19,210 nucleotides of DNA from Methanotrichaceae archaeon (GCA_963803145.1 CAWDLW010000028.1:1-19210), one strand, 5' to 3'. Shown: positions 5,622-19,210, counted from the first letter of the stretch. The notes: generated by a model not told the origin, from the letters alone. Translations and numbers: made by a program.

Positions 5622-7046
5622 ATGAGATGGATGGAGATTCTATGCGTAATGCTGATGGCTGCCATGGTGGCATCATCGGCATCTGCTTCTAGTGTAACGG
5701 ATTTCAGCTCACTGGATAAAGCCATCCAGGAAGAGCTGAAAGCGACTAACACCCCGGGGTGTGCCGTAGTTATGGTCAGCGGCGACAAGATAATTTATGC
5801 CAAGAGCTTCGGAGTGGCCAATCTGGAGACGGGCCAGCCTTTAAAGCCTGATGCTCTGTTTAATATAGGGTCCACTACCAAAATGTTCACCGCCTGTACC
5901 CTTCTCTCCCTGGCAGAGGAAGGAAAGCTGGATATCAACATGCCCATTGGCAACTACATTAAGGGCCTGAGCCCAGGGCTGTCCAAGGTGACTGCAAGCC
6001 AGCTTCTCAGCCACACCGCAGGCTTAGAAGACCTATCCAGCAACCCAGTGGAAGATTGGGATTACCAATCCGGCCTCGGGAGATATGTACGCTCTATGAA
6101 CGACTCCATGTTGTTCACAGAGCCAGGAGATATCTTCTCTTACTCAAACCCCGGATTCGATATTGCAGGCTATTTGATAGAGGTCGTTTCAGGGAAGCCC
6201 TATGCCGATGCAGTGGATGAGAAAGTCCTGAGGCCTCTTGGCATGAACAATTCCACCTTCCATCTGGAGTATGCCGTCACCTATCCATGCCAGATGTCCA
6301 TGGGGCATGAGAGCTTTAGGACTGTAAAGATGGAGGTTCTCCGGCCCTATGATGAGGTCGCTAACCAGTGGCCTGCCGGGTTCCTAATCTCCAACATCTA
6401 CGACATGGCCAAGTTCGCCACAGCCATGATGAATAACGGTACCCTAGACGGAAAGCAGGTCCTATCCCCGTCCGTAATAAAGGAGATGTGTACACCCCAT
6501 GTCCGGCAGTACGAAGTGAATGCAAATATGAGCTACGGCTATGGCACGGATATCAACACCTTTGATTCCGAGGACATAGGGCATATGGGAAATGCCATGG
6601 GCTTCAACAGTATATGCACGATAGTCCCTGAGCGCAAGATTGCCGTGATAATCCTATCTAATAACGCTGGAAGTGGTAACATGCTTACTTCAACCAAAGC
6701 GGCTCTTGGGCTCATGATGCCCCTGAAACCTGAAGTACAGAAGGCGCCCCTTCCCATGAACCAGTCGGAGATGGCTGAGTATGTGGGCAACTATACTACG
6801 GGCGCCGGGACTGTGCATAGAATCAGAGTTGTAAATGGCAATTTATCCTGGAGTCAGGGTGGAAAACTTCTGCCGGACCAGCATCCAATGGAATTGCCCT
6901 TGCTGAAGCTGAGCAATAACGATGAATTCGGCATCCAATATCCTCAATATAACAATTTAATAGTTCCTGTCCAGTTTGCAAGAGGCAAGGATGGAAAGGT
7001 CAAATACTTCCACATACATACAAGAGCCTTCCTGAAGGAGTCTTGA
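5622..7046 (+). CDS. Secreted serine hydrolase, beta-lactamase class C / PBP-like family
   Basis: Signal peptide, SxxK (GSTTK), LLSHTAG, YxN (YSN) and GHMG triad, plus a C-terminal extension (EYVGNY). Confidence 0.93.
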   Translation: MRWMEILCVMLMAAMVASSASASSVTDFSSLDKAIQEELKATNTPGCAVVMVSGDKIIYAKSFGVANLETGQPLKPDALFNIGSTTKMFTACTLLSLAEEGKLDINMPIGNYIKGLSPGLSKVTASQLLSHTAGLEDLSSNPVEDWDYQSGLGRYVRSMNDSMLFTEPGDIFSYSNPGFDIAGYLIEVVSGKPYADAVDEKVLRPLGMNNSTFHLEYAVTYPCQMSMGHESFRTVKMEVLRPYDEVANQWPAGFLISNIYDMAKFATAMMNNGTLDGKQVLSPSVIKEMCTPHVRQYEVNANMSYGYGTDINTFDSEDIGHMGNAMGFNSICTIVPERKIAVIILSNNAGSGNMLTSTKAALGLMMPLKPEVQKAPLPMNQSEMAEYVGNYTTGAGTVHRIRVVNGNLSWSQGGKLLPDQHPMELPLLKLSNNDEFGIQYPQYNNLIVPVQFARGKDGKVKYFHIHTRAFLKES

Positions 7047-7504: not shown

Positions 7505-9076
7505 CTAGATCTTTTTAAAGCTACCGTCCAGGAGCCCTCCCATCTCAGTTGTAAGTCCCTCAGCACTTCCCTCAGGACCGATCTGGAAAGTGGCAAATCC
7601 CCCGCTGTACTCAGGGAAGTCAGGGAGATCCATTAGGAAGGTATCCCTGTTATAGGGCTTCAGAATTATCTCCGAGTTCCTGGGACCGAGAGCCATAGCC
7701 AGGCTTCCATTATCCACAAAGATCCTGAGATTGCCGTAGACATCATTGGTATAGTTGCCCGCATAGCTCTCATAAGGAAGAGGCTCTGGGTGCTGTGCCT
7801 GGGACGCTGTTTGACTATCTTTGATGCTAGCGATTGCATTCTCTTTCGCTTTCTGTTCCTCTAGGTAATCCGTGCTTGGATTTTCGAAGTACATGTCCAT
7901 GAACTTCCTTGCCAGTATGGTCGGCGCTATCTCGAACCTATTGGCAAACACTAGTATGCCTACCTTGGACTGAGGTGCAAAGGCAACTATGGTCAGGTGG
8001 CCTGTAGTCCCGCCGGTGTGCCAGAGGAGGGGATCTGGATGGTAGTTTCCATATCTCCAGCCAAGGCAATAATAATCTATGGGCATAGGCCAGTAGCCTG
8101 CTTTCATCCCTGGATCTGTCACTGTTATCTCAGGAGTCAGCACGTACCTGAGGTTGTCCTCGCTTATGATCTGCTTTCCTTGGTACGTCCCATTGTTCAT
8201 AAGCATGGCCAGCCACTTGGCCATATCGTAGATATTGGAGTTTATTGCACCAGAAGGACCTACGTTATATGTCCAGTCCAGGTATTTCCAATCCATGGAG
8301 ATGGGCTCTAATGTGCCGTTTACCTCCCTGTGAAGGTACGCCACATTGCGGCCATTCTTGAAGGATTGGAGGTCTGTCGATGAGTTTCTCATGCCCAAGG
8401 GTGAGAATATATCTTCCATGACTGTCTCGCCCCAGGGCTTGCCAGTGAGCTTCTCGGTGAGGTTTTGGGCTACTACATATTCCAGGTTCTGATAAGCATA
8501 AGCCGACCTGAAGCTCGTGACCGACTTTTCGTATTTAAGAGCGTTTATCAACTGGGATCTGTTGTAATCCATTTCCATCATCATATCCCCGAAATGATGG
8601 GGCAGGCCGCTCCTGTGGCAGAGCATATCGGTGATGGTGAACTCCCTGGTGACCCAGGGGTCGTACATCCGAAACTCGGGCAGATAATCAATGATCTTGT
8701 CATTCCAATTCAACTTGCCCTGGTCAACCTGCATGGCCAGAAGGGCAGACCCAAAGGCTTTGGAGCAGGACCCTATCTGGAATATCGTATCAGGAGTGAT
8801 AGGATCTGTGCCGCCAACTTTTCTCACACCGAAGCCCTTGGCATAAACCAGCTTATCTCCGTAGACTATGCCTATAGCCATGCCAGGCACCTCTAACTCC
8901 TTCATAGAGTCCTGGGCATACTTCTCAAACGCTGGCAGAATTTCTTTGATTCTATCCTCGCCACTAGATGCTGAAGCGCAGCACGAGGATATTATCATTA
9001 TCGTCAGCATTAATGCCAACATCATCAATCTATGATGATACTCCAACTTCATCCCTCTATTTTCGTAAACTAGCAA
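7505..9076 (-). CDS. Secreted serine hydrolase, beta-lactamase family with DUF3471-like C-terminus (likely start ATG 9052)
   Basis: Signal peptide, GSCSK, MLCHRSGL, YQN, WHTGG and a C-terminal YAGNYTNDVYG. AGAGGG precedes ATG 9052. Confidence 0.93.
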   Translation of the reverse strand: MLVYENRGMKLEYHHRLMMLALMLTIMIISSCCASASSGEDRIKEILPAFEKYAQDSMKELEVPGMAIGIVYGDKLVYAKGFGVRKVGGTDPITPDTIFQIGSCSKAFGSALLAMQVDQGKLNWNDKIIDYLPEFRMYDPWVTREFTITDMLCHRSGLPHHFGDMMMEMDYNRSQLINALKYEKSVTSFRSAYAYQNLEYVVAQNLTEKLTGKPWGETVMEDIFSPLGMRNSSTDLQSFKNGRNVAYLHREVNGTLEPISMDWKYLDWTYNVGPSGAINSNIYDMAKWLAMLMNNGTYQGKQIISEDNLRYVLTPEITVTDPGMKAGYWPMPIDYYCLGWRYGNYHPDPLLWHTGGTTGHLTIVAFAPQSKVGILVFANRFEIAPTILARKFMDMYFENPSTDYLEEQKAKENAIASIKDSQTASQAQHPEPLPYESYAGNYTNDVYGNLRIFVDNGSLAMALGPRNSEIILKPYNRDTFLMDLPDFPEYSGGFATFQIGPEGSAEGLTTEMGGLLDGSFKKI

Positions 9077-12526: not shown

Positions 12527-12618
12527 CTGATTGCAGTTCTGAACGATCTTATGGACAAAGGCAACACTGTGGTTGTGATTGAGCACAATCTGGATGTGAT
12601 CAAGTCCCAGACTATACT
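12527..12618 (+). pseudogene. uvrA: Short uvrA C-terminal remnant
   Basis: Reads [27 protein letters not shown], then (A)DY in a shifted frame. This matches the UvrA second-ABC H-loop [18 protein letters not shown]. An in-frame TAG precedes it. Confidence 0.8.
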
Positions 12619-12733
12619 CGTGGCAGGGTCCAGATGGCAACGACGCAATATTCAGGGCTGCATGTACTCCGATGAAGCCAACAGGAAGATTGAATATTTA
12701 AGAAATCCAATCACTATGAATGGAGATGCTAAT

Positions 12734-12925
12734 ATGGGTTCATCCAAGATTATAGAATGTGTTTACGAAGATGGTGTTTTTAAGCCGCTGGGAAGGGTGG
12801 ATCTGAAGCAGGGCACGAGGCTATTGATCAAAGTGGGCAGAGCAGACCTATCTAAATATTGGGGCATACTGGGCAAGGCATCAGCGGAAAAACTTGCAGA
12901 GCTTGAAGAAGAGGCCCAGCTTTGA
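12734..12925 (+). CDS. AF2212/DUF104-family antitoxin (true start ATG 12734, not 12551)
   Basis: Translates as [27 protein letters not shown]..., with the I..VYE.GVFKPL..V.L..G signature. GGAGA upstream. The stop overlaps the toxin start (TTGA). Confidence 0.88.
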
Positions 12926-13377
12926 TATTTGTCGATACAAACGTATTTTATAATTCGTTATTTGATACGAAATTCTCTATATCGGCGAGAAGATTCATCG
13001 AATTGAATCAAGAACTTGTAACCTCCTCTTCGGTCATTAATGAGTTGATCCTTGTGGCCATTCGAAATCTTTGCGAGGAAAGATATGGCACCAGAAGCCA
13101 TTCTTCTTTTAGGAGTTTCATAGCGCAAAGAGGATATGAGCCTTTCAAAGAGGATCTGAATGCGGTTCTACAGTTTTTTGAAGACAGCGATATCTGCATT
13201 GTGTCCACTAATGAGAATATCGATGATTGGAGCACGATTATGCAAAAGTATAGGCTCTTACCTTATGATGCTCTAATTGTCTCCACGTGCATCTCCAATG
13301 GTATCAAGGAGATCGCCACATTCGACAAGGATTTTAGGAGGGTAGATATCCTTAATGTGCTTGATTTGAACGAATGA
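12922..13377 (+). CDS. vapC: VapC-type PIN domain toxin
   Basis: Acidic PIN motifs IFVDTNV, VINE, PYDALIV and TFDKDF. Translationally coupled to the antitoxin. Confidence 0.9.
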
Positions 13378-13524: not shown

Positions 13525-13749
13525 TCAACACCACCAAGGCCAGATCCAGGGTGGATAGAAGGGCGGATGGAACGGGAAATGTCCTGGCCCATGTCCACCA
13601 GGATGCCAACCAGGTCCGTGCCCATCTGGCCCATGTCCACCAGGCCCGTGCCCGTGATCAAGAATAGTGGCTGGTTCGGCGTTCGCAGCTCCAATCATTC
13701 CTACTGCTAATGTTACAATTAGCAGTAACACCATCAATTCTTTTCTCAT
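13525..13749 (-). CDS. Small secreted His/Gly/Pro-repeat peptide with a Trp/Pro-rich tail (start likely ATG 13749)
   Basis: Signal peptide MRKELMVLLLIVTLAVGMIGAANA, then GHGP repeats, ending PPWIWPWWC. Exact 19-bp internal repeat at 13584-13602 and 13626-13644. Confidence 0.8.
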   Translation of the reverse strand: MRKELMVLLLIVTLAVGMIGAANAEPATILDHGHGPGGHGPDGHGPGWHPGGHGPGHFPFHPPFYPPWIWPWWC

Positions 13750-13884
13750 ATTCTTTTCCTCTACCAAACTTTACAGTTTTGGGCTTTACTAAACGATACT
13801 AGTCTACAATAGGATTTAAATTCTAGTTTTATGAATATTTTACCTAAAATTTATATTGATTTCAGCTAAAATCTATATGAAACT
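13701..13884 (-). repeat. Copy 1 of a duplicated promoter + 5' leader + signal-peptide cassette
   Basis: Colinear blocks shared with 17378-17551: a 28-bp identity, TTTTCTCATATT, CTTTACAGTTTT, GATTTAAAT (TATA-like) and ATATGAAACT. Confidence 0.9.
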
Positions 13885-14097
13885 ATGGTTTTTTCAGACA
13901 AAGATGGCTAGAATGGTACAAAAACGCTCCATTGGTAGGTTCAACATTTTATATGAATCCCTTCCATAGGCTAAATGAAGCCTATGAAAACGCCTCCTTT
14001 TGCGCCTTGAATTTCGTGCGATCATGCGCGGCGATAATTTAGGCATACGTAATAGTATAGACAATTATATTATTCGCCAATGTCTTTGAATCTCGCT

Positions 14098-15318
14098 CTA
14101 GAACCACCGCTTCATCCGCTGCTCGAAGCTGAACCCTTCGCGAGTGCAATTGAACCTGAGGATTATCCTATCATCCTTGTTTATGACATTGTAATCCCCG
14201 CGGATAAACTCGAGTTTAGAACGCTGCCCTTTTGGTACCATCAGGCTGAGCGTAACTGGAACCATTGTCAAGTTGTTGGATAGAGACAGCCGCACGCTTG
14301 CATCACTATTGGTGCCTAATCTGATAGATGTACTGCTATCACTAGATATTGTTATTACTCCACCTCTGGAGATCACACTTTTATAAATGTTAGGGGGGAG
14401 CACCATCTCTATTTCATCATTAAACCCTTCTTTGTTGGTGATATTCAAATCGAGGAAATTGCCCTGGCTTGTATCTGAGAGTAACAAGGAATAATCCACT
14501 GGCTTAAAACCGAAGGGATCCATTATTATTGCTATGACGACAATTAGAGCAGCAAGCCCCAGAGCAGCAATCTTGATCTTGCCTCTAGAGTCTTCGCCTT
14601 TTCCTGTAAGTTTTTGTGTCTTTGACTCGTAGGTCGGTGCAGTGGTTTCAAGGGATTGGCTACCCTCGACAAGATTATTCTTAGCTTCCTCTGTTATGCC
14701 CCGAGCAGTCTCTCCCGCGACATTTGCAGGCGACTCTGGCGCACGCTCCGAGTGAGCTGCATCTTGCAGTGTATCGGCCGCTATATCTATCTGATTCAGA
14801 GAATCCTTCTCTGCTTCGATGGAAACTATGTCTTTCTGCTGTTGGTCGGATTTCTCCAATTCTGGCAAAGAGGCTTCCGCCTTGGTTGGCACCTTTCTCC
14901 TGGTGGGAAACACAACCGTGCCCTCGTCGAAGTTGAACGCGAGTTCAGTATAGGTGCCTGACGCATCTACGAACATTTTCGCTTTTGGCACAAGGTATGT
15001 TACCCAAGAGATCTTGACCTCTTCAAAGAACTCGGTATTCTTAATGAGACGGTCCTTGAATGCATAGACTGAGCCGCTTTCCATCCTAGCATCTATTTCA
15101 CTCAGGCTTGGGAATCGGTCCTCCTGGGCAGCCAGCTCTTTGGTTGCCCTGGCGTAGGCCTCGAAGAAAACCTTGCTCATCCGGTTGAGCCTGTTCATAT
15201 ACCGCCGATCAAAGAGAAAAGAGAAGTTTTCCCCTTTAAGCGTCAATCTCTCTTCTGCTAATTGCTGCCAGGCGGAATACGAAACATCCATTGCTGGGAC
15301 ATCTATCTTGGCCAACAA
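14098..15318 (-). CDS. Hypothetical single-pass membrane protein
   Basis: 406-aa ORF with a globular N-terminus, an acidic low-complexity linker, a TM helix IAALGLAALIVVIAIIM and a beta-rich C-terminus. Confidence 0.75.
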   Translation of the reverse strand: MLAKIDVPAMDVSYSAWQQLAEERLTLKGENFSFLFDRRYMNRLNRMSKVFFEAYARATKELAAQEDRFPSLSEIDARMESGSVYAFKDRLIKNTEFFEEVKISWVTYLVPKAKMFVDASGTYTELAFNFDEGTVVFPTRRKVPTKAEASLPELEKSDQQQKDIVSIEAEKDSLNQIDIAADTLQDAAHSERAPESPANVAGETARGITEEAKNNLVEGSQSLETTAPTYESKTQKLTGKGEDSRGKIKIAALGLAALIVVIAIIMDPFGFKPVDYSLLLSDTSQGNFLDLNITNKEGFNDEIEMVLPPNIYKSVISRGGVITISSDSSTSIRLGTNSDASVRLSLSNNLTMVPVTLSLMVPKGQRSKLEFIRGDYNVINKDDRIILRFNCTREGFSFEQRMKRWF

Positions 15319-15419
15319 TAAGTAATTTATGTAAGAGGCATTAGGCCCTATCTTTAGTTTTCATATAAATTTCATATAAAAGGTATCTTTAAATCTTGAG
15401 CTGCGGAGAATAATACCTA

Positions 15420-15830
15420 ATGAGTCAAGTGGGAGTGTCAGTGCCAATTCTTCTGCTCATTGGGATTGGTATCATTAGCGGTCAAGCTGCAGCATTTGCA
15501 TTAACTGCCAACCAACAGGTGCAACCGTCAACCGTAGCTGTTGGTGAGACCGCAACGGTGAACCTTATGCTTTCCTACAACGGAGACGACGGCATTCAAG
15601 TTACAGTTACACCTGGCTTTACTCCAGGGGTCTCGGCAGACTCCGGAGCCAAAACAGTCTTCCTGTCTCCGGGAAGCCAACAGACGATCAGCTATCCCAT
15701 CGTAGCCGAAAAAAGTGGGACATATTGGGTAACTTCTACAATCTCCTATGCGGATGGGGGATCTATGCGGCAGCTAAGCAAGGAATCGCGCTTCACTGTG
15801 ACAGGTGCGTCCAGAGAGAATATGGAATGA
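15420..15830 (+). CDS. Secreted Ig-like (CARDB/BatD-like) domain protein, possibly 3'-truncated
   Basis: Signal peptide, P..V.VGETATV.L.L and L.PG..QTISY.I.AEK.GTY patterns. Confidence 0.7.
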   Translation: MSQVGVSVPILLLIGIGIISGQAAAFALTANQQVQPSTVAVGETATVNLMLSYNGDDGIQVTVTPGFTPGVSADSGAKTVFLSPGSQQTISYPIVAEKSGTYWVTSTISYADGGSMRQLSKESRFTVTGASRENME

Positions 15831-16367
15831 ATCCATAAGCCACTCAAATTCCGTTTCATTCATTGAGGGATTTACTCCATCTGGTTCTACCCCAAGAATG
15901 ATGAAAGTCTTTCCTTTATCATCCTTCGCATCGATACAGGATATGGCAGCCATTTCAGTGGTATTAGAAGAGGTATTGGTTCGAATCTTCACTATCGCTG
16001 GCCGTCCATCAATTTTTCGCCAGTAAGTCTCATCAATATCCATAGGGGACGCGTTTTCAAAACAGTTGTTCACTTCTGCTTGGAATAGAGATCTGTTCAA
16101 TACAAGGGCTGAAGGATACTGCCTCAGGACAGTTATATTGATATCCAGATATGTTATGATTGTATCCGGTATGTTTATCAGGCCAACATACTGCACATAA
16201 TCCTTTCCAGTAACGCTATCCCAGGCGTTCAAGGGCCCTACTACAACTAGCGTTGAATTAGAGCCCGGAATATCAAAGGAGATTTTATATGGGCCTAGAT
16301 AGCTGATGGTTCCTGAAGTCAGGCTGATAGTTAGGGCCAATGCCAATATGGGAAATATATACTTCAA
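15774..16367 (-). CDS. Hypothetical secreted protein (likely start TTG 16367)
   Basis: GGGAGGGT precedes TTG AAG TAT. Signal peptide KYIFPILALALTISL and motifs GPYKISFDI and IDGRPA. Confidence 0.7.
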   Translation of the reverse strand: MKYIFPILALALTISLTSGTISYLGPYKISFDIPGSNSTLVVVGPLNAWDSVTGKDYVQYVGLINIPDTIITYLDINITVLRQYPSALVLNRSLFQAEVNNCFENASPMDIDETYWRKIDGRPAIVKIRTNTSSNTTEMAAISCIDAKDDKGKTFIILGVEPDGVNPSMNETEFEWLMDSFHILSGRTCHSEARFLA

Positions 16368-16483
16368 AGCTAAACCCTCCCACCAATTATCTCGAAAATT
16401 TGAATTTCTATTAATAAAGTTATTGTTGGTTGCATGCGATCGGTAATTCAATGGAAGTGTTACCGATTCTTACTTTTCATATA

Positions 16484-16620
16484 GGGCTTATCCCTAAACA
16501 ATCCTCTATGCTGAACTACAAAAATGTTATCACATATCCATATTTAAGGACATAGGATATGCATTTTTTCAAAAAAAGCTATGCTTGAATTAAAGATGCA
16601 ATAACTTTAGGGATAAGCTC
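16484..16620. mobile_element. Putative MITE / internally deleted IS, 137 bp
   Basis: Terminal inverted repeats GGGCTTATCCCTAAA (16484-16498) and TTTAGGGATAAGCTC (16606-16620), matching 14/15. AT-rich non-coding interior. No clear target duplication. Confidence 0.65.
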
Positions 16621-16667
16621 AGAATTTTAAACTACTCTAAATAAAAATATATGAAAATTAGAGATGT

Positions 16668-17426
16668 CTACCAGACATATATAGGTAATACGTTGCTCCA
16701 TCCGGATCTACTGCCCCACATTGCTACCAAATGCCAACCCCTCTGGTCCCCATAGAATGAAGAAAACGTGAATCCTGGCCATCTAAATCCCCAGTTAGAC
16801 CACATCGGGAAGCCATTCGAATCATATCCCCATAGGTTTTGGGTCTGATCATTCAATACCGCTATATTCTCTTGTTGATATAGAGATACTGACGAAGGTC
16901 CTTGTGTCCACTGGCCGTTGTAAAACGCCCAAATCTGGATGCCACTAGGTGCTGGAGGAGCAGCAAAGAGCTTTGGAGTAGGAGCACTTGTAGCAACACC
17001 TGAAACTCCTTCTGATGAGGATTCCGGTTCAGAACCGAAATTTGCAATTATACTTTGGGTATCAAGAGTTTGTCCCCCTTCTAGATTTTCCAAAACATTA
17101 CCTGTGTTTGCAGAAGGCGCATGTGAGGGAATTGCTGCCTGCGGACCTTCTGTAGGATGTTCTGAATTCGATTCTTCTCCTGGGATAGGACTAAGTTGAT
17201 TCTCGGGCGGAACAGGTCCTTCATAACCAAAGGGGTTATATGGTACAAGACCGGATTGACTTCCGGAAGGATTGGGCACTTGATAACCAGAGGGGCTACT
17301 TGGTCCCACATTAGGTATCGCATAAGGGAAACCTCCTGGAGTGGGTTGCGCTACGCTTTCATCCATAAATAGCCCGACTACTGCTAATGTTACAATTAGC
17401 AGTAATATCATCGATTGTTTTCTCAT
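16668..17426 (-). CDS. Secreted protein with a Pro/Ser/Gly-rich stalk and a Trp-rich C-terminal domain
   Basis: Signal peptide MRKQSMILLLIVTLAVVG, AGGTGG RBS, and a C-terminus GWHLVAMWGSRSGWSNVLPIYVW. Confidence 0.82.
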   Translation of the reverse strand: MRKQSMILLLIVTLAVVGLFMDESVAQPTPGGFPYAIPNVGPSSPSGYQVPNPSGSQSGLVPYNPFGYEGPVPPENQLSPIPGEESNSEHPTEGPQAAIPSHAPSANTGNVLENLEGGQTLDTQSIIANFGSEPESSSEGVSGVATSAPTPKLFAAPPAPSGIQIWAFYNGQWTQGPSSVSLYQQENIAVLNDQTQNLWGYDSNGFPMWSNWGFRWPGFTFSSFYGDQRGWHLVAMWGSRSGWSNVLPIYVW

Positions 17427-17551
17427 ATTTCCACCTTTACAGTTTTTAGTTTTACTATAACGACGATAGTCTTCAATTAGATTTAAATCTATTTTTTATA
17501 TATATTTTATCTAACATTTATGTTAGTTCCATCTTAACTTCATATGAAACT
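17378..17551 (-). repeat. Copy 2 of the duplicated promoter + signal-peptide cassette
   Basis: Colinear homology with 13701-13884. Confidence 0.9.
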
Positions 17552-17725
17552 CTTATCTTTGCGATAAACCAAGCCAGAAGAGTGCAAAAGTTCTATAGTT
17601 TTATCCAGCAATATGCCATTAATTCTATAAATTTATAAGTAGCCCTCTATCTAGCTGTAAATAATGGGGAAGATAAAATGTGAATAAGAATCATACCTTA
17701 TTCACATTCAAATCTTCTTCGAATA

Positions 17726-18856
17726 TCAAGCCTCTGCACAACATTTCTGGGTCAAACGTACATCGTTAATAGATACTTGCCCTATGGGACTATCACCAGG
17801 CATTGAGATATCTAGATATATATCGTCTGGGTCGTCATATATTCCATTCCCGTTAGTGTCATAGTAGCGTATTGCGCCTAGATTCTTCGGATATGCTGGG
17901 AAAGTGACCAATATTATATTGGATAGTAATTTGTTATGATCCAGGTCGAAGTCCAAAACTTTTGTACCAGCACAATTTGAGCCGATCGTGTTCAATCTAA
18001 CATCGTTTGTAACTATATGCTGAGAATTCTTGGATAAATTGTTAACTGTATTTGTTAAATATCCTATATATTCTCTATCACTTGTGATAGTTTTATTTAA
18101 CGAATCTACTGCCTTTGAAAGTGATGCATCTAATATCTTTAGCTTATTTGTACCACAAATATGATAGTAATATTTGCTTGTCCCTTTAATCACCTCAACG
18201 TTTTTCCCATCGCAAACCCCACAATCCATTGGTTTAGGATCAGCGATCTCATCGAATACACATAAACTATATTTGTCGGTAAATTTTATGGTTATAGCCC
18301 CTGCGCATTTTCCGCAGCAACTTTTTTTACCAGCCGTGTCGAAATTTATGAACCCCTCGCAGAACTGTTGGTCCACATTTGAACCAAAATTTAGGTCAAT
18401 ATGTTCTAGTGAGTTTTGATGGAGATAAACAGGGTCCTCTATATCGTATAATTCACTACCTTCTAAATTCAAGAACCCTATATAAGCGAATTTTAATGGC
18501 TTAAGTTCCTTTCCGATATCATTATCAAAAGCAGTTACCTTGCTTCCAGGAGGTTTATCACCATATGATGTAAGCCTGACGTCATTGGCGTTTACCACTC
18601 CAGTGGGCCGTAGATCTAAATAAACGATATCTTCTGCATCATAAATATCTGGATTTGGTCCAATATCCCAAAAGCCTATCAATGCTTGTTCTTTGCCTTG
18701 CACATCTATATTCTTAAGGAGCCGACCGATATCAGGATCTCCTGGCAAAACCTTGCTCCCAAAGGAACAATCTTGTGCCAATGCCGTGCCCAAGACAAGC
18801 AAGATGCTAACGGCTATCAGCGCAATTTTCGAATAGCTTTTCATATAATTTCCCAC
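17726..18856 (-). CDS. Secreted three-repeat Asp-rich protein with a Cys-rich insert (likely start ATG 18844)
   Basis: Signal peptide, three G(S/T)KV...D.D....L / YD..D..YL / NDVRL units, and AGGTGGG upstream of ATG 18844. Confidence 0.82.
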   Translation of the reverse strand: MGNYMKSYSKIALIAVSILLVLGTALAQDCSFGSKVLPGDPDIGRLLKNIDVQGKEQALIGFWDIGPNPDIYDAEDIVYLDLRPTGVVNANDVRLTSYGDKPPGSKVTAFDNDIGKELKPLKFAYIGFLNLEGSELYDIEDPVYLHQNSLEHIDLNFGSNVDQQFCEGFINFDTAGKKSCCGKCAGAITIKFTDKYSLCVFDEIADPKPMDCGVCDGKNVEVIKGTSKYYYHICGTNKLKILDASLSKAVDSLNKTITSDREYIGYLTNTVNNLSKNSQHIVTNDVRLNTIGSNCAGTKVLDFDLDHNKLLSNIILVTFPAYPKNLGAIRYYDTNGNGIYDDPDDIYLDISMPGDSPIGQVSINDVRLTQKCCAEA

Positions 18857-19210
18857 CTGAAATTATTCTATTTTCCCTAAATTAACCTACCAATTTTCGG
18901 TATTATTGTGAGGATATTTAACTAAAATATAAAAAATTAACTTTGCTTCAATACAAAGAATTAATCTCGCTTCAAAAAATGAAATAATTATGGAAACATA
19001 CGGTTAAATCTCATATCATAATATGGATATTTTGCATTGGATTTAAATTTTCTTGTTTTGCATCTTGAAGGATTGATAGCTAATGTCTGCATTGCTTGCT
19101 AATTTGAAATATTTATGATGCAGAGTGCTATATTATACAAACAATTTCATTCAATTTTTCCTCAATGATGAAATATCCAGCGATAAATTTATTAGATAGC
19201 TCTCCCAATT

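Follow-up and report, generated by a model that had tools for sequence, protein, structure and literature searches.

A palindrome in the leader shared by two neighboring secreted-protein genes of a Methanotrichaceae archaeon: probable promoter-leader capture and possible selection on an mRNA stem-loop

Introduction

The closest known kind of system to the one analyzed here is the Erp/Elp lipoproteins of Borrelia burgdorferi (Elp, 'OspE/F-like leader peptide'), exported paralogues that share the upstream region and the leader and carry mature parts of different families. Recombination reportedly made these mosaics, a conclusion said to go back to Akins et al. 1999. Here we analyze a related arrangement in a 19,210-nucleotide stretch of DNA from a Methanotrichaceae archaeon (GCA_963803145.1 CAWDLW010000028.1:1-19210; the whole of this stretch is called the window below), in which an identical 28-bp palindrome lies within the predicted signal peptides of two minus-strand genes, denoted A and B. 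In contrast to the Borrelia family, the case comprises two archaeal genes, the leaders are of the Sec type and not lipoprotein leaders, there is a palindrome at the junction, and there is no plasmid or prophage context. The Elp family and a three-way classification are named in excerpts of PMC12242104.

Three further systems bear on the palindrome itself. The preliminary description of this DNA took it for a candidate cargo-swapping recombination site of the Xer/dif type (XerA in archaea), with which it has in common the length of 28 bp, the two arms and the 6-bp spacer. Each replicon has a single dif site, which is intergenic, has imperfect arms and is conserved in related genomes, and recombination between two active Xer sites in the same orientation would remove the DNA between them. 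The preliminary description itself stated that the 28-mer departs from the dif consensus. The second system is quasi-palindrome or template-switch mutagenesis, together with rearrangement end points associated with palindromes, to which the locus is linked by a short intragenic inverted repeat with perfect arms. According to excerpts of the literature, template switching perfects the arms in one step and can give rise to hairpins in RNA (PMC8794818, PMC3820800, PMC7202029, PMC8604942). The third is the class of 5' coding-region mRNA signals in genes for exported proteins, where the likeness lies in nucleotide-level information within the region encoding the signal sequence. In Escherichia coli, the AU richness of the 5' coding region of an enterotoxin mRNA affects secretion (PMC7610253, in extract); that case, however, is bacterial and concerns composition rather than a perfect stem-loop.

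We propose that the 28-mer is a hydrophobic-core coding segment within a ~190-230-bp promoter/5' untranslated region (UTR)/leader module that would belong to a lineage of small secreted His/Gly/Pro-rich peptides, namely gene A, the metagenomic locus L055 and the proteins P0003 and P0004. One illegitimate recombination event, whose 3' breakpoint fell where the hairpin-forming palindrome ends, would have placed a copy of this module before the unrelated gene B, 3.7 kb away. Outside the coding sequence, the module would then have drifted to ~70% identity, with the palindrome unchanged through purifying selection on its nucleotides. The selected form may be an mRNA stem-loop of 11-12 bp, 22 nt after the AUG and just past the initiating ribosome, which would affect the early translation or the mRNA stability of the secreted product. 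As a whole, this account, which combines a single promoter-leader capture with nucleotide-level selection that has kept the palindrome, most probably in the form of an mRNA stem-loop, is put forward tentatively and stops just short of being probable. The parts that we infer are that the capture ran from the A lineage to B, that the hairpin played a role in the breakpoint, and that the palindrome functions at the RNA level.

Results and discussion

Two identical palindromes in a shared promoter-leader module

The exact 28-mer occurs at two positions of the window when the + strand is read (Table 1), and the pair is real and beyond chance, with no match of any kind in 200 shuffles. On the coding (minus) strand it reads TTACTGCTAAT-TGTAAC-ATTAGCAGTAG, with 10 perfect base pairs around an asymmetric 6-nt spacer. 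The outer T/G position is a mismatch as DNA and a U.G wobble as RNA; counting it as one mismatched outer pair gives the palindrome a Xer/dif-like size. In both genes, the palindrome begins 22 nt after the A of the AUG, spans 22-49 nt inside the coding sequence and encodes in frame LLLIVTLAV, codons 8-16, as part of the hydrophobic core of the signal peptide. These codons include the rarest leucine codons, TTA twice (0.10) and CTA (0.11). Perfect inverted repeats of this size class (arms of at least 10, spacer 3-8) are not rare: the whole genome of 4.13 Mb contains 78, compared to ~24 naively expected.

Genes A and B are both predicted to encode secreted products with Sec-type signal peptides, each with a basic n-region, a hydrophobic core of ~10-15 residues and a small-residue cleavage motif. 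The parts are MRKELM-VLLLIVTLAVGMIGA-ANA/E in gene A and MRKQSM-ILLLIVTLAVVGLF...SVA/QP in gene B, which also passed a signal-peptide heuristic; with the predicted cleavage, the N-terminal sequences are MRKELMVLLLIVTLAVGMIGAANA/EP... and MRKQSMILLLIVTLAVVGLFMDESVA/QP..., respectively.

The genome (G000 below), which carries mcrA, is assembled in 51 contigs with 6.8% contamination. A third exact copy of the 28-mer, at C24:81570-81597, is not independent because positions 14704-19210 of the window match the last 4.5 kb of contig C24 (C24:79765-84271) at 99.6% identity, with 16 differences, all within 14720-15816. Both contigs, C24 and C28 (that of the window), end at the borders of this match, which has the pattern of overlapping contig ends but may instead be a true duplication. 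Only two independent copies of the 28-mer are therefore present in the genome. The assembly probably holds redundant strain variants, given the contamination and a genome ~1 Mb larger than those of its two congeners.

The palindrome is the final segment of a much longer similarity. Genes A and B have in common ~186 bp that include the upstream region, the 5' UTR and the first 16 codons, with matches in 138 of 186 alignment columns (74%), or 110 of 158 (70%) outside the perfect run; BLAST gives 78% identity. The longest perfect run in the module is exactly the 28-mer, and a run of 28 was reached in 999 of 200,000 column shuffles. The similarity stops where the palindrome ends on its 3' side, and nothing is alignable past its last base. 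Thus, the duplication of the module and its boundary at the palindrome are observed directly. The preliminary description had claimed the exact pair, the perfect 10-bp arms with their asymmetric spacer in both copies, the same reading frame with identical synonymous positions, the divergence of the adjacent duplicated DNA and the end of homology right at the palindrome, and on all these points it was accurate.

The mature parts of A and B are unrelated. Homologues of the mature part of gene B were found in 18 of 41 genomes (E up to 0.01; G000 included), Atlas places its relatives in Methanobacteriota, and these homologues bear other leaders, in this genus MKRTMLLIAMMIVVIITS...AQP. The two genes accordingly have the makeup of mosaic genes, with similar upstream regions and leaders, unrelated mature parts and homologues of a mature part behind other leaders. 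Outside A and B, no further copy of the module was detected in the genome by nhmmer with a hidden Markov model (HMM) of both upstream regions, and a six-frame search of the genome found the leader peptide nowhere else. That the two genes are related by capture of the module is, in our judgment, well supported and likely. Of the exchange between leaders and cargo envisaged in the preliminary description, re-pairing at this boundary at least once stands, but nothing supports an active switching system.

Four sequences, representing at least two genera, have the leader in front of His-rich cargo, and B-type cargo follows it only at this locus; therefore, by parsimony, gene B would be the recipient. 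This direction is not proven, which counts against the proposed account, and the closest paralogue of gene B is ~40% identical, so that the ancestral leader would be unrecognizable anyway. An HMM of the upstream region and leader of this paralogue had no match in the window with nhmmer, even when the window alone was searched with --max. A likeness by eye of the gene B upstream region and leader to B-family leaders in the genus was rejected as unsupported by nhmmer.

The leader in another genus

The 28-mer, with up to 3 mismatches, was found in none of 60 relatives and in none of the 104 other genomes of the family. Its exact arms with any spacer occur in 4 stretches of the genome collection, all from bacterial metagenome-assembled genomes, and in 8 of the metagenome collection, with no match among viral contigs; among these 12, the same spacer and frame are found only in L055. 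Two weak DNA matches, L026 and L027, were rejected as AT-rich chance matches.

L055 belongs to another genus (g2), as its ABC-transporter genes are 89% identical to those of G109 (g2) and 70% identical to those of G000. Positions 177-240 of L055 are 95% identical to the gene A leader over 64 nt, and the last 43 nt, which include the palindrome, are 100% identical. Upstream of the start codon, L055 does not align with gene A, and downstream of the leader it encodes a His-rich peptide, cargo of the same kind as that of gene A but strongly diverged from it. The conserved block of A and L055 ends 15 nt past the palindrome, beyond the A/B junction; therefore, the two known junctions do not coincide. 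The peptide gene of L055 is not syntenic in G109, G115 or G120. Conservation of the palindrome across genera is thus an observed fact. L055, which is the only homologous leader available as DNA, conserves every synonymous site, so that the homologous leader does keep the palindrome; the other expectation, of further copies at different leader/cargo junctions, was not realized.

At the protein level, a profile search of 1.84 billion representatives yielded only the gene A protein itself (P0001), P0003 and P0004 at E up to 0.001. P0003 is a His-rich protein of 66 aa with the same leader, and P0004, 262 aa as called, has the leader from M85 and, after it, HG-rich sequence and a beta-rich domain; both show the pattern VLLLIVTLAV, then G/A-x-IGA...AE, then HG-rich sequence. 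The translated upstream region of P0004 resembles the A/B module in a match that includes the leader; the upstream part alone is no more than suggestive. A protein word search for longer proteins with this leader gave no match, a negative that carries little weight.

Two other observations on L055 can be recorded. At ~249-251, the codon after the predicted cleavage site is a TAA stop where P0003 and gene A have Glu, which could be due to a pseudogene, a sequencing error or recoding. Moreover, positions 1-149 and 496-645 form a ~150-bp direct repeat, 95-98% identical, ahead of two different small genes, one for the His-rich secreted peptide and one for a 57-aa helical protein, and so give a further instance of upstream duplication.

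Ongoing short-tract gene conversion between copies 3.7 kb apart, an alternative in the preliminary description, could also keep 28 nt identical, and the copies are indeed close, in direct orientation and sharply bounded in their identity. However, the identical 28-mer in L055 of another genus is left unexplained; furthermore, the flanks are only 70% identical, with no homology to support a conversion tract on either side, and the 3' boundary is the end of all homology. We regard gene conversion as very improbable.

Conservation of the nucleotide sequence and the predicted stem-loop

Comparison of A, B and L055 shows that the 21 nt before the palindrome require at least 6 substitutions, whereas the 28 nt of the palindrome require none (Poisson P ~3e-4 at equal rates). 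The 43 nt that are identical between A and L055 belong to genera whose housekeeping genes are 70% identical, and by a hand count on the alignment the canonical family gene leader reaches only ~75% identity between these two genera. All synonymous sites agree in the three DNA copies, which is conservation beyond the requirements of the protein. Among 5000 synonymous recodings drawn by genome codon usage, none reached a perfect stem of at least 9 (maximum 8), and therefore the palindrome is no mere consequence of the encoded peptide.

The mRNA of the three leaders is predicted to form a stem-loop with an 11-12-bp stem (-15.2, -15.3 and -11.9 kcal/mol; z = -2.59, -2.65 and -2.15), and 3, 6 and 5 of 200 shuffles, respectively, folded as well. 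For local structure, the gene B leader ranks 4th-5th of 476 signal-peptide-like open reading frames (ORFs), a set that leaves out ORFs below 100 aa, gene A among them. Unrelated B-family leaders in the genus of G000 (g1) have a hairpin of 8-10 bp starting from +20 (z = -2.2 to -3.4; 5 of the 13 loci were dropped for lack of a usable start). An RNA-level function of the palindrome is possible, somewhat short of probable. Among the g1 B-family hairpins (G000 C18:~122914-122990; L005 and L006), we noted two G.U pairs in two genomes and a shifted register after two substitutions in the third. Three other signal-peptide-like ORFs of the genome, at C8:181557, C8:142332 (minus) and C45:25028, have much stronger leader hairpins (z = -8.9, -5.5 and -5.3, respectively), the first with a ~20-bp stem.

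Several results weigh against the stem-loop. The stem is identical in all three DNA copies, hence there is no covariation to read. As many as 292 of the 5000 recodings fold at least as stably, and therefore it is perfect Watson-Crick symmetry, not stability, that stands out; an RNA element would need no such symmetry. Signal-peptide regions are not generally structured, with a mean z of -0.52 for the 476 ORFs compared to -0.43 for 349 internal hydrophobic segments (P = 0.36), and a general hairpin in such regions was rejected on this ground; other controls gave -0.36 (476 non-signal-peptide ORFs, P = 0.054) and -0.24 (the same ORFs at +241..+288, P = 0.0002). The distant His-rich homologue in G123 has no leader hairpin (z = -0.97), nor do B-family leaders outside the genus (z = +0.3 to -1.2), and a hairpin across the whole B family was rejected as it is seen only within g1. 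Finally, canonical family leaders are highly conserved within genus g2 without the palindrome, so that leader conservation need not depend on a hairpin. In Rfam, the palindromes had only chance-level matches to mir-155 (E = 0.3-0.6). Of the alternatives listed in the preliminary description, the mRNA hairpin fits better than a recombination site.

Some of these results would suit an explanation that we consider unlikely, though far from negligible, namely that the palindrome is incidental. It would have arisen once, by chance or by a quasi-palindrome template switch, as an acceptable hydrophobic core with no function of its own; the identity of A, B and L055 would reflect general leader constraint or recent horizontal transfer or recombination, and the breakpoint would be hairpin-stimulated or coincidental. 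Such an origin is consistent with symmetry that is exceptional (0/5000) in a stem whose stability is not, as template switching makes symmetry in one step (PMC8794818, PMC3820800 and PMC7202029, in extract). The excess of perfect repeats in the genome, the strongly conserved g2 leaders that have no palindrome and the missing hairpin in distant homologues all point the same way, and mobility would fit the variable, non-syntenic surroundings of gene A and the L055 gene. However, an incidental palindrome does not readily account for zero changes in 28 nt over three copies next to at least 6 substitutions in 21 nt, or for 43 identical nt between genera this divergent. Recent transfer would leave a similar mature part, and the mature part is not similar. 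By a weak comparison of our own, a simple template switch accounts for 4 of the 9 extra nucleotides relative to the canonical leaders; unlike in described template-switch cases, copying of the other arm explains only part of the extra sequence, and the ancestral imperfect state is not at hand.

Selection at the nucleotide level could also act on DNA, if the palindrome were an intragenic operator through which a dimeric regulator controlled A and B together. A perfect DNA palindrome common to two genes with a shared promoter module is what such a regulator might bind, and in the family promoter described below a different 10-6-10 palindrome closely precedes a TATA-like box. There is, however, no sequence similarity to that upstream palindrome. 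The intragenic operator, also named in the preliminary description, failed to find support and appears scarcely probable because the site is inside the coding region, well downstream of any promoter, survives in L055 although the promoter there is replaced, and has no regulon: similar palindromes elsewhere in the genome amount to 3 weak matches, compared to 7 for a reversed control. Taken against these alternatives, a stem-loop in the mRNA is the form of selection that we favor, with the reservations given above.

Site-specific recombination

Under the reading of the preliminary description, the palindrome would be a target of a Xer-like or other tyrosine recombinase, or an anchor of homology, for cargo exchange or for the excision of a 3,677-bp circle. 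Its geometry (10/11-6-10/11 within 28 bp), the direct orientation of the copies and the end of homology at the site are compatible with this possibility. So are the position of the leader in the other genus, between an unrelated upstream and a diverged downstream sequence, the duplicated upstream block before two different genes in L055, and the presence of 13 matches to PF00589 in the genome. Nevertheless, none of these 13 is on C28 or C24, and Pfam scans detected no recombinase domain in 20 ORFs of the window, including those between the copies, just as the preliminary description had stated. The site is limited to two independent copies and was not found in the family genomes, relatives and viral contigs searched; the A and L055 sequences diverge 15 nt further on than those of A and B; and the interval is not a unit in G001. 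In that genome, o406 and o136 directly follow a DJ-1 gene, and A, o225 and B are absent from the locus; the rearranged locus shows that the 3.7-kb interval is therefore not an insertion unit.

Compared to dif, single, intergenic and conserved, the palindrome is present as two direct copies inside coding regions, with perfect arms, in none of the 104 other family genomes and with no recombinase nearby. An integrative element flanked by att sites is not indicated either, as there is no integrase in or beside the segment, which is not present or absent as a unit. With integron attC/cassette systems the locus has in common a palindrome at the border of a gene-sized unit; in contrast to cassette arrays, there are only two sites, no integrase is adjacent, the sites are in the leader rather than behind the gene, and four genes and a promoter lie in the interval. 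In four DNA runs (word shares 0.05-0.09; Logan contigs 2-4x; 3-12 of 30 bins covered per run), no recombinant joints were listed, at a coverage too patchy to count. The two copies, the absence from the relatives searched, the lack of a nearby recombinase and an interval that is no unit led us to set aside the cargo-swapping Xer/dif-type site. A recombinase target or homology anchor thus has very little probability, and the palindrome is very probably not a site-specific recombination site.

A different palindrome of 28 bp, ATTTCTGATT-N8-AATCAGAAAT, occurs in seven copies in G000 (Table 1), one of which (C12:30916-30943) is separated by 44 bp from a match to a tyrosine recombinase (C12:30345-30872). 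As a possible recombinase-associated site, this palindrome is a stronger candidate than the 28-mer of genes A and B.

A more general possibility, which we consider improbable, is that the palindromic leader core is a portable junction that re-pairs promoters, leaders and cargo within the genome and between genera of this mcrA-bearing family. Such a junction would work by hairpin-stimulated template switching or some recombinase. The hints are that A and B have a common promoter and leader with different cargo, that L055 has an A-like leader with another, duplicated promoter block, that P0004 has the same leader with longer cargo, and that two genera otherwise 70% identical share the leader at 95-100% identity.

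If the proposed account of promoter-leader capture is correct, the locus would be a clean archaeal case of a new secreted-protein gene that originated from the promoter and signal peptide of a neighbor, with the breakpoint at a hairpin-forming repeat, and would offer a candidate for nucleotide-level selection on a stem-loop in a signal-peptide coding region. The palindrome pair is no evidence for a new recombination system. The wider context, that is, a rare cross-genus leader on hypervariable His-rich peptides and a family-wide promoter-leader block, may be the more useful lead.

A family-wide promoter-leader block and other features of the locus

The distant homologue in G123, a His/Asp/Gly-rich and Tyr-rich secreted protein, led to a promoter/5' UTR/leader block of ~170 nt, 69-88% conserved, in 66 of 105 family genomes (loci L079-L108). 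The block stands before a secreted protein in which a hypervariable stretch rich in His, Asp and Gly accompanies a Tyr-rich 'YDWLSPGG' domain; the mature parts of the proteins that it leads are hypervariable. An operator-like 10-6-10 palindrome, ATGTAGATAT-TAGGTG-ATATCTACAT, lies in the block directly before the TATA-like TTTTAATATTAA and is perfect in some genomes and 8-9/10 in others. G000 has an orthologue and a paralogue of the block at C12:172333-172507 and C15:288707-288842, respectively. The gene A c-region, GMIGAANAE, resembles LGMLMAIGAANGE of the family-wide gene at C12, and an imperfect inverted repeat upstream of gene A resembles the block palindrome (Table 1). Homology of the upstream region of A and B to the family-wide promoter is no more than suggestive, with weak statistical support (nhmmer E = 6-9 genome-wide).

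In the block family (L079-L108; G000 C12 ~172440 and C15 ~288740), the sole in-frame codon at the customary spacing of 7 nt after the conserved GGAGG is ATT. An ATT start would give a basic n-region, I-N-S-I-K-L-M..., and the first ATG is 22 nt further, with an uncharged leader. Judged from these reading frames, ATT is a possible start codon in the family.

Table 1. Coordinates of features in the window and, in the last row, elsewhere in the genome
Feature	Coordinates	Strand	Description
Palindrome copy 1	13701..13728	-	codons 8-16 of gene A signal peptide; 10-bp perfect stem, 6-nt loop
Palindrome copy 2	17378..17405	-	codons 8-16 of gene B signal peptide; identical to copy 1
Module copy A	13701..13932	-	upstream region, 5' UTR and first 16 codons of gene A
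Module copy B	17378..17596	-	similar to copy A (74% identity in 186 aligned columns) up to 17378, where homology ends
Gene A	13525..13749	-	74-aa predicted secreted His/Gly/Pro-rich peptide; no Pfam family
Gene B	16668..17426	-	252-aa predicted secreted Pro-rich/Trp-rich protein; no Pfam family
Imperfect 10-6-10 inverted repeat (9/10 pairs)	13853..13878	-	upstream of gene A; resembles block palindrome
o406	14098..15318	-	membrane-anchored protein between the copies; no Pfam family; not a recombinase
o136	15420..15830	+	small secreted protein; sub-threshold BatD/DUF11-like match, 23.5 bits vs cut-off 24.1
o225	15774..16451	-	putative secreted protein; no Pfam family
Inverted repeat, terminator-like	17679..17706		perfect 10-bp arms, then minus-strand T-run; outside module
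ATTTCTGATT-N8-AATCAGAAAT copies	C2:11339, C3:3940, C12:30916, C12:35089, C15:402594, C18:81841, C25:24713

The three ORFs between the palindrome copies thus encode one membrane protein and two secreted proteins. The terminator-like inverted repeat lies 20 nt past the stop of o376. Elsewhere in the window, genes for an AF2212-like antitoxin and a PIN-domain toxin lie at 12551-13377 with a 4-nt overlap; the rearranged locus of G001 has the same pair together with another toxin-antitoxin-like pair. Two divergent paralogues, at 5622-7046 (+) and 7505-9076 (-), each combine a Beta-lactamase family domain with DUF3471.

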